A stretch of DNA of 64,000 nt from an uncultured Faecalibacterium sp. (GTDB lineage Bacteria > Bacillota > Clostridia > Oscillospirales > Acutalibacteraceae). The translations under genes were made by a program, and so were the position numbers. The stretch's first letter is position 1; each line of letters opens with the position of its first letter. Positions 5,064-32,067 of this stretch are shown one piece after another. The notes below the pieces were generated by a model that made no database searches, was not told the origin of the DNA, and was given only the letters and a program-made list of their open reading frames with translations. The stretch covers positions 39,117 through 103,116 of the forward strand of contig CAYZOU010000005.1 of assembly GCA_964480405.1 (NCBI GenBank). The letters are read 5' to 3'.

Positions 5064-5148
5064 TGGTGCATCTGACAGGAATCGAACCTGCACGTCTTTC
5101 GACAATGGATCCTAAATCCATCGTGTCTACCAATTCCACCACAGATGC
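5064..5148 (-). tRNA. tRNA-Leu (anticodon TAG), encoded CCA
   Basis: The reverse complement folds by hand into a cloverleaf. Acceptor stem is GCATCTG/CAGATGC and the anticodon stem ATGGA/TCCAT carries loop TTTAGGA. There is a long variable arm TGTCGAAAGACGT, T-loop TTCGATT and a 3' ACCA. Confidence 0.93.
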
Positions 5149-5406: not shown

Positions 5407-6687
5407 TTATTTTCCGAAGATGTTATTCTTGCCCTTGAATATGGGAAGTATCTCTCCGTCGTCTCCGTCGTTGTCATCGAAAACCGATGCGCCCTTTGAC
5501 GGTGTGTGAACAGACTCGGTTGCAGACGGAACAGCAGTTTCCTGCTTTGCTTCGCCCGACTGTGACTGTAAGTTCTTGTCAAAGGCTTCTCTGAACGCAC
5601 GGAGAATGTCACTGTTGACTGCGCCCGTGGGAGTGGTCGGAGTGAACGGTGAAGGTGTTGTCGGTGTTGTTCCGATGAAGTTCTGTGAGGGATTGGGAAT
5701 CTGATTAGACGGCGTGCTCTGCAAAAGGTTCTCGTTTCTGAAGCCTGTTGCAATAACGGTTATGAGCATCTCGTCGCCCATATCCTCGTCGAATACCGAA
5801 CCGAAGATGATGTTTGCATCGGGATGAGTGTTCTGTGAAATGAGGTCGCCTGCCTCCTCGATTTTATCAAGAGGCATGTCCGAAGAACAGGTGACGTTGA
5901 TAATAACGCCGCTTGCGCCCTCGATCGTTGTTTCAAGAAGCGGACTTGTGATAGCTTTCTCTGTTGCTTCTGCCGCACAGTCATTACCCTTGCCACGACC
6001 GATACCCATATGAGCTCTGCCTGCGTCTTTCATAACGCTCTTGATATCCGCAAAGTCAAGGTTGATATAACCGGGAACTTTGATAGTGTCGGAAATACTC
6101 TTAACGCCCTGCCAAAGAACCTCGTTCGCCTTGCCGAAAGCATCACGAATACCGAGACTCTTGTCACCTAAAAGGCGAAGTCTCTCGTTCGGAATGACAA
6201 TAAGACTGTCAACATTCTTTTCAAGCTCTTTTATACCTTCCTCAGCCTGCACCATACGCTTTCTGCCCTCAAATCTGAACGGCTTTGTTACGATACCGAC
6301 TGTGAGTATGCCCATTTCTTTTGCTATTTCGGCAACTATCGGAGCTGCGCCCGTGCCTGTGCCGCCGCCCATACCTGCGGTGATGAATACCATATCCGTG
6401 TTTTTGAGCACTTCGGAAATAGCTTCTCTGCTTTCCTCGGCAGCCTTGCGACCGACTGTCGGATCGCCGCCTGCACCCATGCAGCCCGTTGTTTTCTCAC
6501 CTATCTGAATTTTATGTGTTGCCTTGGAATTTTCAAGAATCTGACGGTCGGTATTGATCGAAATAAACTCGACGCCGACTATACCGGCGTTAACCATGCT
6601 GTTAACGGCATTTCCGCCGCCACCGCCGACACCGATTACCTTTATCTGGTTATATGCGATATATTCATTATCAATAGCGAAACCCAT
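5407..6687 (-). CDS. ftsZ: Cell division protein FtsZ
   Basis: [11 protein letters not shown] and the tubulin signature [13 protein letters not shown] are present. The C-terminal linker is disordered and P/T-rich. Confidence 0.97.
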
Positions 6688-6871
6688 TAAACTTCCTCCT
6701 AAACATATGTAATTACAAAGCGCATAACTGATAAAACGACTGTTTTTTTGCGCACAACTTCATGATATATTGATGATTATAACATACATAAACTGAAATA
6801 TCAATAATATAAATTAAAAACTTTATTTGAATTTCATATACATTTTTGAGTATTTTGACGATTAAAACATA

Positions 6872-7999
6872 TCATTGTGTCGCTTTCTTAGTGTCGTTCT
6901 TTGAAGATGTTTTGTTATTTTTCTTGGAAGTGCTTTTTGTGGTACTTATAGTGCCTTCTTTGAAAAATGCTTTGGTGACACTTTTGAGATTTATCGTGCC
7001 CTCGGATTTGTTGTTTTCTTCTTCGAGCTTTGCGATTATCTCTTTAGCCATTTTGAGCTTTGACTCCATGTCGCTTTCAGAGCCGAAATCAAGCTTGATT
7101 TTTCCGTTATAGACCGCCGAAAGCAGGTTGATATCCGTGACATTTATTTCGGTCAGCTTCAGTCCGTTTTCGCTCGCTCTTGCGATTATGTCCTTTGCCG
7201 CCGCCAAGCTTTCGGGGGATTTCACCGTCAGTGTCGTTCCGGGCTTTGTGTTGAGCAGGTCTATGCCCTTGAGCAATATCGTGTCTCCCTTTTTCTCGCT
7301 TTTTTCCTCTAAGACCTTATCGTTGCCGTCAAGCAGGATATACTTTTTGCTTTTTTCTATTGAGTACACGGGAAGTGCTTCCGTTATTTCAAGCTCGACC
7401 CCCGAAGGAATATTTCTGACGACGTGAACACTTCCGACGTACGGCAAGGAAGCGGAAAGCGTTTGTGTAACATTTCCGGATGTGGTACGCCACAGGTTGT
7501 CGCCGAGATTCACACCCGATGCCTCGATTATTTGTTCTTGAGAATATCTTGTATCACCCGAAACGGTGATAGTCTCGATCTTGAAAAGCACGGTGAGCGA
7601 AAGCGCCGTGAGTATCGCAGCGGCGATAACGACAGTGAAGAAAAGCGTCTTTATGACATTTCTCTTGCGCTTCTTTCTTGCTTTTTCGGCGTATGCCTTG
7701 CGGCGCTCGTCATTTGAGCGAGTGTCGGCTTTCTTCTTATTCTTGGCGCTCTGCCTTCTTGCGCTTGTCTGTCCCCTTTTCTGTGAGGACGGCGCCGCTG
7801 TTTTTTTCGGTGGCGCTATGGGACGCTCTCTGTCGGCAGAAGTAAAGCTCCCCTGCTTTTTCGGTGCGTCATAAATATATTTTTCGCCCGTTATCCACTT
7901 GCGTCTTTCCTCGGCAAGCTGTTCGGCACGTCTTTTTTCATCGTTTATACTTTGATATCCGTTCCTTTGGTTTCCGTTATTTCTTTCCCAATCCTTCAT
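6872..7999 (-). CDS. ftsQ: Cell division protein FtsQ/DivIB-like with a long basic N-terminal extension
   Basis: Single TM (LFFTVVIAAAILTALSLTVLF) followed by a POTRA-like region (IETITVSGDTRYSQEQIIEASGV). It sits between murA and ftsZ. Confidence 0.8.
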   Translation of the reverse strand: MKDWERNNGNQRNGYQSINDEKRRAEQLAEERRKWITGEKYIYDAPKKQGSFTSADRERPIAPPKKTAAPSSQKRGQTSARRQSAKNKKKADTRSNDERRKAYAEKARKKRKRNVIKTLFFTVVIAAAILTALSLTVLFKIETITVSGDTRYSQEQIIEASGVNLGDNLWRTTSGNVTQTLSASLPYVGSVHVVRNIPSGVELEITEALPVYSIEKSKKYILLDGNDKVLEEKSEKKGDTILLKGIDLLNTKPGTTLTVKSPESLAAAKDIIARASENGLKLTEINVTDINLLSAVYNGKIKLDFGSESDMESKLKMAKEIIAKLEEENNKSEGTINLKSVTKAFFKEGTISTTKSTSKKNNKTSSKNDTKKATQ

Positions 8000-29119: not shown

Positions 29120-29232
29120 AAAACAGAGTAGGTTTGAGTGCGTTAAGTTCCGTCTGAACGGGGAGTTGTCAGATGGCCGAAAACGGTTCAGCATAGTTGA
29201 GCCCTTGCGATACTCTTTCCGCATCCCGCTGT
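29120..29232 (+). promoter_or_regulatory. THF (tetrahydrofolate) riboswitch aptamer
   Basis: Conserved THF-motif blocks are recognisable: cAGAGUAGg...GUGCGUUAAGU...GAACGGGGAGUUG...CGAUACUCU...CCGCAUCCCGCUG. It lies upstream of a FolT-type ECF S-component gene. Confidence 0.85.
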
Positions 29233-29259
29233 AAACAAGAAAGATCGGACAAAATATCC

Positions 29260-29296: not shown

Positions 29297-29830
29297 ATGC
29301 CCGAAAATAACAAAAAAAGAAGTCAGCGACCGTTATATGAGCTGATAAGTCTTGCGATGCTGACTGCGCTTTATGTCGTCATGAACAGGTTTCTGTCCGT
29401 TTCGGCTTGGAACATCAATTTCGGCTTTTCATTCGTTGCGACCGTGACAGCCGCCGCACTTTTCGGTATTCACGGCGGAATGGCAGTCGGAGGCTTAGGT
29501 GACTTCATAGGCGCTGTGCTTTTCCCGAAGGGTGCATATTTCCCCGGCTTCACGCTTTCCGCAATGCTCATCGGTGCGGTTTACGGTGCGTGTTTGAAAA
29601 AAAGCACCGAATTTCGCAGTGTTGCTCTCGGCGCTGTTTTGTCACAGCTTATCAGCAGTCTGATACTCAACTCCGTGTGGGTATCGGTGCTTTACGGCAG
29701 TCCGTTCAAGACTGTTATCATATCCCGTCTGCCGCAGTTTTTGGCTGTGACGGCTTTACAGCTTGTGATTTCGCCTTTGATAGTCAAGGTGACGGGGATA
29801 ATTAAAAAGGAATTGAAGATTTCGGCGTAA
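29297..29830 (+). CDS. folT: Folate-family ECF transporter S component
   Basis: 177 aa, about six TM helices. The sequence is FolT-like (LTALYVVMNRFLSV...) and a THF riboswitch lies upstream. Confidence 0.85.
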   Translation: MPENNKKRSQRPLYELISLAMLTALYVVMNRFLSVSAWNINFGFSFVATVTAAALFGIHGGMAVGGLGDFIGAVLFPKGAYFPGFTLSAMLIGAVYGACLKKSTEFRSVALGAVLSQLISSLILNSVWVSVLYGSPFKTVIISRLPQFLAVTALQLVISPLIVKVTGIIKKELKISA

Positions 29831-29944
29831 ACCCGCCCGCGAAGCGGGCGGGGCGGGTGCGAAGCACCCCACGAGCACGAAGTGCGAGTGGGGTGACTGA
29901 GCAGCCGCCGTTGCGGGCGCGGTAGCGAAGCGAGTGCCCGCAGG
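29831..29944 (+). repeat. Family A-related GC-rich repeat (series of hairpins with GAA/GAAG loops)
   Basis: cccgcccgc-gaa-gcgggcggg, ggtgc-gaa-gcacc, ccccac...gtgggg and gcgggc...gcccgc. The first hairpin differs from other copies by compensated changes. Confidence 0.8.
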
Positions 29945-29975
29945 AAAAATCGGGGGCTCGATGCCCCCGATTTTT
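29945..29975. terminator. Bidirectional terminator between folT and the serpin gene
   Basis: aaaaatcgggggc-tcgat-gcccccgattttt. Confidence 0.85.
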
Positions 29976-29991
29976 CCGTTAAACGCAGAAA

Positions 29992-31449
29992 TTAAGGCTG
30001 ATTGACAACACCGATAAAGAGCGGCGTATCACCTAAGCCCGTTATCACGAACAGAAACGGTCTGTTAAGATCAAAGTCGACCTCATCTTGCGGCATACCT
30101 GCTCCTGCGTAATCAAGGCTCATATATGCCGATGCGGTTATCCCCTGCTCGTCAATTGCAACTCTCGCTGCGTGTTCGGCTGATGTTATCGCTAAAGCTT
30201 CGTCCGTCAAAGGCGAAAAGTCCGACTTATTAAAATCAAATATATCTTCAACACCGACCTTTTTAAGATTCTCCGTCAGGTCAACATTTGACATTATATC
30301 AAACTTCGGAACGGATAAATTTATCAGCGGATACGCTGTATTCTTATATTCGCCGTCTCCTATCATTTTTAAAGCGTCACCTTTTTGCAATAACTCCTCT
30401 GTTGTCACTCCCTCATCGGGAAGAATTAACCACATATTGCCGCTCTCCGATAACGACAATGTGACAGCGGCAAATCCGTCTCCCCAATAATAGCTTCCGA
30501 GCATTGACCTATGCATAAAATCGCAGTTTATGTCGCCGCTTTTAGCGTGGAAAGCTTCCTCATATGTGTTTTCCGATGAAAATTCATCTTGCCATCTGAC
30601 TTGATAATTTATCGTCGATGTCAGATTCATTACGGTCTGAGGCGAAAATTTAAGATTATCTGCGCTCTCCTTTAAAAGACCGCCTGTCTGAGCGTTGACC
30701 CATTCCTGTCTTGCCTTGTTGAAATTTTCATCTGTCATGTTCCCCGAAAATGATGAAGCGTAATAGTTTTCGGCAACCGTTTTGAGCGTATCCTCTTTAA
30801 AATCGCTGTAGCTGTCACTGAGCCATAACGAATTCGCAAGTACACATAAACCTGTTTTGTCGTCTTTATACTGTGCGTTCCATATCTCGTTGGCTGTCGT
30901 TCTCACATTTTCGATTTTGTCCGAACCCAAAAGCTTCAATATCTGCTCTCGGCTTTCACCGTCCGTTGTCTCGGCAAGTATGCTGAGTGCAAAATAAACA
31001 TTCAGCGGAGAGTATACTTTGTTTTCGCCGTTCGAGTCCAATATCTCCTTTGCGGTGCTTTGACAAAAGTCGATCATTTTGTCGGAATACTTTCTCGCTG
31101 TCTGTATATTTTCACGTCTAACATCAAACCATGCATCATACTGCTCATCGTCAGTGCTGAATATATCGGGGTATTCTGCCGCTTCGGGATAAACTGCTTT
31201 TGCAAGCAAATATTTTGAGCCTATGGATAACACTCCGCTGTTTGAGCCGTCCGATGCGTTATTCATCGGCAAATATCTCGGAACAAAGACTATACCCGTT
31301 ACGATTAAGCTGATACACGCTGCCGCCGCAACGAGCTTCACCCAAAGTCTTGACTTCTTTGCGGCTTTTCCTTTCCTGAGCTTTTCGGCGTCGGAAATAA
31401 GCTTGTCGTCAATATGGCTCATCGAGTCCATGAAATCATCGCTTTTCAT
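29992..31449 (-). CDS. Membrane-anchored serpin-domain protein, putative anti-sigma factor
   Basis: Short N-terminal segment, then one TM (LWVKLVAAAACISLIVTGIVFV). The C-terminal part has serpin hallmarks: SPLNVYFALSILAETTDGESREQIL, a hinge-like EQGITASAY, and NRPFLFVITG...PLFIGVVNQP. The start overlaps the sigma gene stop (ATGA). Confidence 0.8.
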   Translation of the reverse strand: MKSDDFMDSMSHIDDKLISDAEKLRKGKAAKKSRLWVKLVAAAACISLIVTGIVFVPRYLPMNNASDGSNSGVLSIGSKYLLAKAVYPEAAEYPDIFSTDDEQYDAWFDVRRENIQTARKYSDKMIDFCQSTAKEILDSNGENKVYSPLNVYFALSILAETTDGESREQILKLLGSDKIENVRTTANEIWNAQYKDDKTGLCVLANSLWLSDSYSDFKEDTLKTVAENYYASSFSGNMTDENFNKARQEWVNAQTGGLLKESADNLKFSPQTVMNLTSTINYQVRWQDEFSSENTYEEAFHAKSGDINCDFMHRSMLGSYYWGDGFAAVTLSLSESGNMWLILPDEGVTTEELLQKGDALKMIGDGEYKNTAYPLINLSVPKFDIMSNVDLTENLKKVGVEDIFDFNKSDFSPLTDEALAITSAEHAARVAIDEQGITASAYMSLDYAGAGMPQDEVDFDLNRPFLFVITGLGDTPLFIGVVNQP

Positions 31450-32006
31450 ATAATAACATCTTCCCTTCTCAAAAAATCTTTCAGTCCGAGCCTCGTTCTG
31501 TGTAACGAGCTTTTTATTTTTGCTTCGCTGTAGCCTGTCATTTCCGATATGCTTTTTATGCTGTCACAGAAATAATATCGACAGACAAAAATGTTTCTCT
31601 TATCTTCCGAAATGCCTTTGAGATATTCGCTGATCATTTCGCCCAAAAGCTTGACGTCGACCCGAGCTTCGACCGTCTCATCGGCGACCGCATCGTCTTC
31701 AATCTCGCTGAGCGCTTGCCCGTACTCACAGAAATATCGCTTTCGACTGTGTTTTTTCCTATAGATATCAATGGAATTTTGTCTGACTATTTTTGCCATG
31801 TATGCGGAAAGTGACTGCGGATTCGACGGCGGTATCGAATTCCACGCCTTGAGATAGGAGTCGCTCACGCTCTCAGCCGCATCTTCAAAGTCCGATAAAA
31901 TATTGTAGGCTATCTTGTGAAGATATGCCGAATATTTCTCCTGAGTATAAGCTATCGCTTTTTCGTCTCTTTCAAAATACAACTTGACTATTTTGTCATC
32001 CTCCAT
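31446..32006 (-). CDS. ECF-type sigma-70 family RNA polymerase sigma factor
   Basis: Region 2 (AAESVSDSYLKAW...IVRQNSIDIYRKK) and region 4 (ISEMTGYSEAKIKSSLHRTRLGLKDFL) are recognisable. Start chosen at MEDDK (32006) with GAGGTG 5 nt upstream. Confidence 0.85.
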   Translation of the reverse strand: MEDDKIVKLYFERDEKAIAYTQEKYSAYLHKIAYNILSDFEDAAESVSDSYLKAWNSIPPSNPQSLSAYMAKIVRQNSIDIYRKKHSRKRYFCEYGQALSEIEDDAVADETVEARVDVKLLGEMISEYLKGISEDKRNIFVCRYYFCDSIKSISEMTGYSEAKIKSSLHRTRLGLKDFLRREDVII

Positions 32007-32040
32007 AATATCACCTCGTTTAAGAGCTCTCATCATATAA

Positions 32041-32067
32041 GACGTAAAAATCAGACTCGGGTTTCGC
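32041..32067 (-). promoter_or_regulatory. Candidate ECF-type promoter upstream of the sigma gene
   Basis: On the minus strand: GAAAC, 16 nt, CGTC. Pattern match only. Confidence 0.3.

Follow-up and report, generated by a model that had tools for sequence, protein, structure and literature searches.

We analysed a 64,000-nucleotide stretch of DNA from an uncultured Faecalibacterium sp. (assembly GCA_964480405.1, contig CAYZOU010000005.1, positions 39,117 to 103,116; the whole stretch is hereafter called the window), which carries on its minus strand a two-gene unit with its own promoter and its own terminator. The first gene encodes a sigma factor of the extracytoplasmic function (ECF) type, and the second a membrane-anchored protein of 485 amino acids (aa) whose large extracytoplasmic part is a serpin. 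As judged by comparative sequence evidence, the 485-aa protein is very probably an anti-sigma factor, and this conclusion is shared by the readings in which the serpin is the sensor, in which it is the regulated product, and in which it is non-inhibitory. The open reading frames (ORFs) and coordinates agree with those of the original prediction, i.e. a sigma coding sequence at 31446-32006 that overlaps the start of the 485-aa protein by ATGA; the sigma TGA and the serpin-protein ATG share positions 31449-31446. The architecture that this prediction had proposed, an ECF sigma factor translationally coupled to a single-pass, anti-sigma-type protein with a serpin ectodomain, is strongly supported by the strict association of the N-terminal peptide with an adjacent sigma, by the co-divergence of these two, by modular reuse of the peptide, by a second, independent sigma lineage fused to the same serpin family and by a promoter that covaries with the sigma clade.

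In a genome survey, 532 stretches in species-representative genomes were found to encode a relative of the serpin, and the best 80 loci (41-56% identity) were scored. These loci came from Oscillospiraceae, Lachnospiraceae, Ruminococcus, Flavonifractor, Hominifimenecus and other taxa; a profile made from the window sigma served to score the sigma neighbours, and start codons were assigned. The closest relatives in the survey were found in uncultured Faecalibacterium and Ruminococcaceae metagenome-assembled genomes (55-56% identity), and the serpin family as a whole comprises more than 3,000 protein clusters at E <= 1e-5. The alignment shows one serpin body (including AxAxYPEMAxYP...YDAW) behind two kinds of N-terminus, either a charged peptide followed by a transmembrane (TM) helix or a lipoprotein signal, e.g. 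MKRILAFLLAAVSVVSLTAC. An ECF sigma gene was located directly upstream and on the same strand in all 47 serpins of the peptide-plus-TM form, with a -4 overlap in 44 of them, whereas an adjacent sigma was found for none of the 32 lipoprotein-anchored serpins among the best 80 loci. Clustering of all flanking ORFs identified the sigma as the sole conserved neighbour of the serpin. A survey of this adjacency had been proposed as a check on the original prediction, and the pairing does recur across many gut Clostridia. Among the best 120 protein clusters, 58 were of the peptide-plus-TM form and 59 were lipoprotein-like. One metagenome contig (L086, P0016), in which no sigma was called upstream, was considered as a counter-example and rejected because a run of N (a scaffold gap) lies inside its sigma gene.

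The lipoprotein and sigma-coupled forms interleave on a tree of the serpin domain, with about six switches between them, and the N-terminal anchor has therefore been exchanged repeatedly. Tandem serpin genes were also observed: in L009, L012 and L055 the lipoprotein form has a divergent serpin (E about 1e-28 to the query) immediately upstream, and in L014 (1-1233) the sigma-serpin pair is preceded by another close serpin.

We assign the N-terminal peptide to the sigma factor because the two co-diverge, because the peptide is reused on other proteins, and because the serpin was recruited independently on a second occasion. With regard to co-divergence, 41 natural pairs gave a correlation of r = 0.72 between the divergence of the N-peptide (first 32 residues) and that of the sigma, which was hardly reduced when the serpin domain was controlled for (partial r = 0.69, permutation p about 5e-4). 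In contrast, the partial correlation between the N-peptide and its own serpin domain was -0.08. The peptide was also found on proteins with other ectodomains. In Monoglobus pectinilyticus, Lachnospira eligens ATCC 27750, Vescimonas fastidiosa and a human faecal contig, the gene after a relative of the sigma (38-42% identity) overlaps it by 4 nt and encodes a single-pass protein with the same N-terminal motif (e.g. MNKKELYKTIGLIDDDLITEAE and MKKEKLLNAIGQIDDKMIADAK) but a different ectodomain. A 712-aa partner with the same N-peptide, encoded at L084:1028-3166 (faecal contig MT835522, labelled bacteriophage, a label that is unverified), contains the Pfam anti-sigma domain RsgI_M (1.6e-22) and five PepSY domains; PepSY is a domain of the peptidase-propeptide/inhibitor type. 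With regard to recruitment, serpins of this family in L031, L061 and L069 begin with a different N-peptide (MKRYQKANEGIHAPEELKENA...) and are coupled to an ECF sigma of another, SigC/SigM/SigW-like lineage that aligns to the window sigma over 43 residues of region 4 only. These loci indicate that the serpin was recruited as an anti-sigma ectodomain a second time, independently of the first. The strict co-occurrence of N-peptide and sigma and the 44 of 47 overlaps are genetic evidence of the kind expected for the co-transcribed cognate anti-sigma factor of an ECF sigma. Further carriers of the N-peptide and further sigmas of the same family were sought in the retrieved loci and in the window, which gave nothing informative.

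The sigma factor itself belongs to the ECF type (group IV); it consists of 186 aa and has regions 2 and 4 only. Both regions had been recognised in the original prediction, and profile searches matched Sigma70_r2 (2.2e-9, above the Pfam cut-off), the sigma70-ECF model TIGR02937 (3.3e-20, 72 bits against a cut-off of 42.9) and Sigma70_r4_2 (2.2e-5), the last with 24.4 bits and thus slightly below the Pfam cut-off of 25.7 bits. The sigma did not reach any equivalog-level model in these searches, SigV scoring 33 bits against a cut-off of 190. It is the sole ECF sigma in the 64-kb window. In one of the homologous loci (L042), a 553-aa ORF on the minus strand, at about 5516-7177 in plus-strand coordinates and divergent from the sigma-serpin operon, combines a sigma-70-type domain at its N-terminus (E = 1e-25 to the family profile) with a long extension at its C-terminus; it may represent a sigma with a fused regulatory domain.

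The serpin protein starts with 33 mostly charged residues, followed by LWVKLVAAAACISLIVTGIVFV. The N-peptide has the conserved motif MKxExhxDAhGxhDDxLhxxA and a basic tract, and an AlphaFold2 (AF2) model of the 485-aa protein, made from 70 family members, predicts two short cytoplasmic helices in it (aa 4-10 and 15-25). Since a basic cluster precedes the TM helix, the sequence implies a topology with the N-terminus inside and the serpin outside; in the family alignment, Trp36 just before the TM helix is nearly invariant. The original prediction of about 35 cytoplasmic-type residues and one TM helix corresponds to the 33 residues and the modelled helix at aa 34-54. A cleaved signal peptide was considered as an explanation for this region and rejected, because the hydrophobic segment is preceded by 33 charged, conserved residues whose motif is common to other sigma-coupled proteins. 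The juxtamembrane linker that follows differs in length between homologues. Next to it lies an N-terminal extension of the serpin, which is common to the TM and lipoprotein forms; Y87 and P88 are invariant and W107 nearly so, and the predicted local distance difference test (pLDDT) score of the AF2 model is 82-94 from about aa 81.

The serpin domain matched the Pfam family Serpin (PF00079) with E = 2.5e-60 over aa 126-485 (profile positions 4-370 of 370), and its closest sequence matches in the PDB were conserpin and tengpin (~1e-32). The AF2 model had an overall pLDDT of 83.7 and a predicted template modelling score (pTM) of 0.81, with values above 90 (pLDDT) in the serpin core, and the best Foldseek match of the model was native tengpin (2pee_A, E = 5e-30). 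The domain is accordingly modelled as a native-like serpin fold with an exposed reactive-centre loop. Profile search, structure prediction and the match to the tengpin fold bear out the serpin hallmarks read earlier from the sequence, among them the C-terminal NRPFLFVITG...PLFIGVVNQP, which is present in the protein. A search with the serpin against a plasmid collection returned only distant archaeal and actinobacterial serpins.

The hinge of the window serpin reads EQGITASAY, i.e. E434 (P17), Q, G436 (P15), I437 (P14), T, A, S, A and Y. It shows the features of inhibitory serpins, with Glu at P17, Gly at P15 and small residues at P12-P9, the deviation being Ile, Val or Cys instead of Thr or Ser at P14. 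Residues 440-452 of the loop had a pLDDT below 50 in the AF2 model, as expected of an exposed loop, and the scissile bond, predicted from alignment only, falls between P1 Ala450 and P1' Gly451. The loop is 3 residues longer than that of alpha-1-antitrypsin, on the primed side. In the family, the hinge DEEG(V/C)TAAA(Y/F)T and the loop AGA/xMPP (the stroke marking the scissile bond) are essentially identical in the sigma-coupled and the lipoprotein forms. These features suggest that the serpin is of the inhibitory type and, given the predicted Ala at P1, that elastase-like proteases are its candidate targets.

A promoter candidate of the form GAAAC-N16-CGTC had been pointed out upstream of the sigma gene. 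The bare pattern GAAAC-N15-17-CGTC occurs twice in the window against 2.15 expected, which is chance level, but the site coincides with an element that is conserved at the same position in related loci. In about 25 loci, TG(T/C/A)(G/A)ACC-N15/16-CG(T/G)N followed by TATAGGTGAAAGG was found at a constant distance from the sigma start, and the window site is one instance of it. Loci with the DGVTDIRDDL subtype of the peptide have TGTCA(C/T)...GCGAC instead. The -35 element hence covaries with the sigma clade (GnnACC versus TGTCAC/T), which is what one would expect of sigmas that each recognise their own promoter. A position weight matrix made from the homologous sites gave exactly one full-motif match in the 64 kb, namely the operon's own promoter, and with a core-only matrix the next best site in the window scored 16.0 compared to 20.8. 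These results suggest that the sigma-serpin operon is autoregulated and, since the sole full-motif match in the window is its own promoter, the local evidence points to pure autoregulation. A scan for sigma-70-type promoters produced only weak 9/12 matches. The post -10 element at 32025-32040 of the window (family TATAGGTGAAAGGnCCTTTCA, window TATGATGAGAGCTCTT) has the potential to fold into a small 5' hairpin, and homologous leaders are present in L008, L014, L020, L026, L042, L046 and L057. The leader hairpin of the window was not significant (z = -1.9), and no Rfam family matched in the locus.

Lipoprotein serpins without an adjacent sigma also have ECF-type sites. The pattern G(G/A)AAC-N15-18-CGTC(TA) was found upstream in 13 of 31 such loci, against about 0.03 expected per upstream window searched, and lies some 60-80 nt upstream in L010, L018, L022, L027, L040, L048, L054, L059, L062, L064, L076 and L080. 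In a further group of seven loci (Flintibacter/Dysosmobacter/Vescimonas, also Hominicoprocola and CCNA10), a looser site (GGGAACA...GCGTCTATA) occurs at ~2085 in L032, L036, L039, L067 and L072, and the matrix gave no match in L043 and L045. This looser site precedes a gene for a 563-aa TM protein with Big_14, which itself lies upstream of the serpin. Because the lipoprotein forms carry ECF-type promoters too, the serpin family looks ECF-controlled in general, and the lipoprotein serpins may be trans targets of ECF sigmas.

On balance, we lean towards a mechanism in which the operon is autoregulated, the peptide holds the sigma, and attack by a protease on the serpin protein leads to release of the sigma. 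Such a release agrees with the anatomy of the protein, and it has precedents in RsiV with lysozyme and in the protease-inducible serpin of B. breve. The cytoplasmic peptide of ~33 residues would, as the comparative evidence suggests, keep the sigma at the membrane. An extracellular serine protease would then attack the reactive loop, and the serpin would trap it covalently in an irreversible transition from the stressed to the relaxed state; alternatively, proteases that overwhelm the local serpin might cut the disordered juxtamembrane linker directly. Either event would expose or create a site-1 cut, after which a site-2 protease of the RasP type would cleave inside the Ala-rich TM helix. RsiW and RsiV are substrates of RasP-type proteases, and by analogy the serpin protein, with its invariant Trp and a TM helix rich in Ala, would be compatible with such a substrate. 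As in other single-pass ECF anti-sigmas, the sigma would be set free only when the anti-sigma is destroyed through regulated intramembrane proteolysis. Degradation of the cytoplasmic stub would free the sigma, which would transcribe its own promoter and thereby give more sigma and more surface serpin, so that the suicide inhibitor would be replaced at the rate at which it is consumed. The N-terminus of tengpin is known to bind the serpin body and trap the native state (PMC1905895); in a similar manner, the N-terminal extension could act as a transducer by which a change in the state of the serpin frees the juxtamembrane segment. The most specific form of this proposal is that covalent capture of an elastase-type protease from the host or a competitor flips the serpin to its relaxed state, that this permits regulated intramembrane proteolysis of the same polypeptide, and that the ECF sigma is freed as a result. 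We put this form forward tentatively, as a possibility to which we give somewhat less than even weight.

Several observations weigh against this mechanism. A Pfam search with the N-terminal 55 residues of 41 members (E <= 10) returned no anti-sigma family except a weak DUF4179, which was sub-threshold and covered the TM part in 13 of the 41 members (best E = 0.04, range 0.04-0.3, profile positions 1-24) and thus gives no evidence of membership. With ~33 residues and two short helices, the peptide also differs from the class I anti-sigma domain (zf-HC2 or the RsrA-RseA-like four-helix domain of ~70-90 aa). Moreover, the target protease is suggested by a modelled P1 in a loop that exceeds the alpha-1-antitrypsin loop in length, and since the lipoprotein paralogues have the same loop, it is not specialised for signalling. 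Finally, it should be underlined that our view of the regulon is confined to the 64-kb window.

These points give room to other explanations. The protein could be a genuine anti-sigma factor with the serpin as regulated product instead of sensor; the sigma would then be released by generic envelope or proteolytic damage or by turnover of the anchor, and proteolysis would mainly serve to release or replace the inhibitor, the conformational change of the serpin playing no part. We consider this rather unlikely, although it accommodates several of the findings: the operon itself is the only promoter target detectable in the window, the lipoprotein paralogues combine the same loop with ECF-type promoters as if the serpin family were an ECF output in general, and the disordered 20-residue linker is an obvious non-specific target for proteases. 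What argues for the serpin as sensor is that two unrelated ECF lineages have recruited it as an anti-sigma ectodomain, that characterised single-pass anti-sigmas such as RsiV and RsgI receive their signal through the ectodomain, and that an irreversible, ligand-triggered switch lends itself well to the gating of site-1 cleavage.

It is improbable that the protein is no anti-sigma factor at all but a signal-anchored surface serpin that shares a transcript with an ECF sigma and is under its control, the true regulator of this sigma being encoded elsewhere. The N-peptide occurs only beside a sigma (47/47 versus 0/32), follows the divergence of the sigma and not that of its own serpin, and is reused on the partners of related sigmas, one of them with RsgI_M; the loci contain no other conserved candidate for an anti-sigma gene. 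The very short cytoplasmic segment and its lack of a significant match to a known anti-sigma domain speak in favour of this explanation. A non-inhibitory serpin that senses something else, e.g. as a ligand-binding serpin, appears still more improbable. Non-inhibitory serpins do exist and P14 is Ile, Val or Cys instead of Thr or Ser, but the AAA run at P12-P10, the Gly at P15 and the Glu at P17 are strongly conserved and typical of inhibitory serpins, and the model predicts an exposed loop in a native-like fold. In addition, those serpins of gut Clostridia and bifidobacteria that have been tested to date are inhibitors of elastase-type proteases (PMC5127057, PMC8012564).

Of the known systems, SigV-RsiV of Bacillus subtilis and C. 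difficile resembles the proposed one in being an autoregulated ECF operon with a single-pass anti-sigma whose N-terminus is inside and whose ectodomain binds a host defence enzyme. In RsiV, binding of the inducer lysozyme unmasks the site-1 cut, which is then made (PMC4183432, PMC5014341, PMC6066255); RasP-type cleavage at site 2 follows, and the output protects against the same enzyme. The RsiV ectodomain, however, is not a serpin and binds non-covalently, whereas the receptor proposed here would be a suicide inhibitor that is consumed. The serpin protein is not of the RsiV type in other respects either, since its cytoplasmic part is much shorter and unrelated and the sigma is no SigV equivalog.

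SigI-RsgI of cellulolytic clostridia, to which the original prediction had drawn a parallel, is similar in that paralogous pairs occur in Clostridia and that one conserved N-terminal module is combined with interchangeable sensor domains. A relative within the N-peptide family does contain RsgI_M, but the parallel does not go beyond analogy: the sigma here is of the ECF type (regions 2 and 4) and not SigI-type, the ectodomain is a protease inhibitor and not a carbohydrate-binding module, and neither RsgI_N nor RsgI_M was detected in the serpin protein by profile searches, so that it is not of the RsgI type. A functional analogy can be drawn to BlaR1/MecR1, in which the extracellular domain of a membrane receptor undergoes covalent, irreversible modification by the very threat that it detects and signals by proteolysis to induce a countermeasure. 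These receptors are related to the serpin protein neither in sequence nor in fold. In BlaR1, a small molecule acylates the sensor, which passes the signal via its own zinc-protease domain to a repressor, not to a sigma.

Among serpins, miropin is a lipoprotein, and the lipoprotein paralogues found here resemble miropin-type anchoring. Tengpin, miropin, the siropins and the Bifidobacterium serpin share the fold and the inhibitory-type hinge with the serpin described here, and tengpin also has a conserved N-terminal extension (PMC1905895). Siropins of gut Clostridia inhibit neutrophil elastase and proteinase 3 (PMC5127057). The elastase-type targets of the siropins and the B. longum serpin are in line with the predicted P1 Ala, and these serpins also share the gut niche (PMC5127057, PMC8012564); the siropins are likened to the present family by niche and targets and set apart from it by description, not by sequence. 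In the literature searched, neither a fusion to a sigma-binding peptide nor translational coupling to a sigma is described for any of these serpins. A full-text literature search for serpins paired with an anti-sigma, ECF or sigma factor likewise found no description, in keeping with the earlier statement that no serpin domain was known as an anti-sigma sensor module. Serpins are not mentioned in the main text of the ECF reclassification paper, nor is coupling to a sigma factor mentioned in the gut serpin reviews and the siropin paper. The combination of an ECF sigma with a single-pass anti-sigma is thus a well-known architecture, and what is new, as far as established, is the serpin as sensor domain together with the short N-peptide module.

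How gut commensals perceive proteases of host or microbial origin is poorly understood. The one characterised case is the serpin of B. breve, whose expression is protease-inducible via a two-component system (PMC8012564) with an undefined signal. If the proposed mechanism is correct, the serpin would represent a new class of sensor domain for ECF signalling and a rare bacterial receptor that is covalently consumed by its ligand. The module is widespread, the sigma-coupled form accounting for about half of the loci (best 80) and about half of the protein clusters (best 120), and hundreds of species of gut Clostridia would then possess a consumption-sensing circuit that reports the luminal or inflammatory protease load and keeps up the supply of inhibitor at the surface; lipoprotein serpins may also be activated by it in trans. 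As a self-contained module of two genes (promoter, sigma and sensor), it could be moved to a model host as a live reporter for elastase-type proteases, an activity relevant to inflammatory bowel disease, in which the balance between proteases and antiproteases is disturbed.

The features of the operon are listed in Table 1. The sigma frame is also open as a longer ORF of 234 aa, but we place the start at 32006 because the sigma homologues and the profile begin with the residues MEDDKIV and because the conserved promoter falls inside the extension. The terminator hairpin is strong (-31 kcal/mol, z = -5.7) and closes the two-gene operon.

Table 1. Features of the sigma-serpin operon, in window coordinates
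Feature	Position	Strand	Details
ECF-type promoter	32041..32067	minus	-35 GAAACC 32065-32060, -10 CGTC 32044-32041, T-rich spacer; position conserved across loci
5' leader with conserved post -10 element	32007..32040	minus	window TATAtGaTGAgAG, family consensus TATAGGTGAAAGG
Ribosome-binding site GAGGTG	32017-32012	minus	6 nt 5' of the sigma ATG
ECF sigma gene	31446-32006	minus	186 aa, ATG at 32006, TGA at 31448-31446
Serpin-protein gene	29992-31449	minus	485 aa, ATG at 31449, end 29992
Cytoplasmic N-terminal peptide, aa 1-33	31351..31449	minus	MKSDDFMDSMSHIDDKLISDAEKLRKGKAAKKS; putative sigma-binding (anti-sigma) module
Single TM helix, aa 34-54	31288..31350	minus	Ala-rich (VAAAAC); predicted from AF2 and alignment
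Juxtamembrane linker, aa 55-75	31225..31287	minus	disordered, AF2 pLDDT < 50 for residues 51-74; candidate site-1 cleavage region
Conserved N-terminal serpin extension, aa 76-116	31102..31224	minus	AxAxYPExAxYP...YDAW; packs onto the serpin body in the model
Serpin domain, aa 117-485	29995..31101	minus	Pfam, PDB sequence matches, Foldseek
Hinge and reactive-centre loop, aa 434-455	30085..30150	minus	alignment to conserpin bearing the alpha-1-antitrypsin loop
Intrinsic terminator hairpin	29943-29977	minus	15-bp GC-rich stem and U-tract, 15 nt past the serpin stop

The neighbouring genes in the window are unrelated housekeeping genes, encoding a PfkB kinase, a GHMP kinase, a polysaccharide deacetylase, an energy-coupling factor (ECF) transporter S component and a TetR regulator. 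The intergenic region between the convergent transporter and serpin genes (29831-29977) contains three GC-rich hairpins in a row, at 29831-29858, 29865-29895 and 29943-29977, of which only the last looks like the terminator of the serpin operon. A tetrahydrofolate (THF) riboswitch (Rfam RF01831, 66.5 bits) is located at 29122-29233 on the plus strand, 5' of the transporter S component gene (29297-29830), which because of this riboswitch probably encodes a folate-family transporter. One tRNA gene was found by Rfam at 5067-5148 on the minus strand of the window, with no connection to the sigma-serpin operon.

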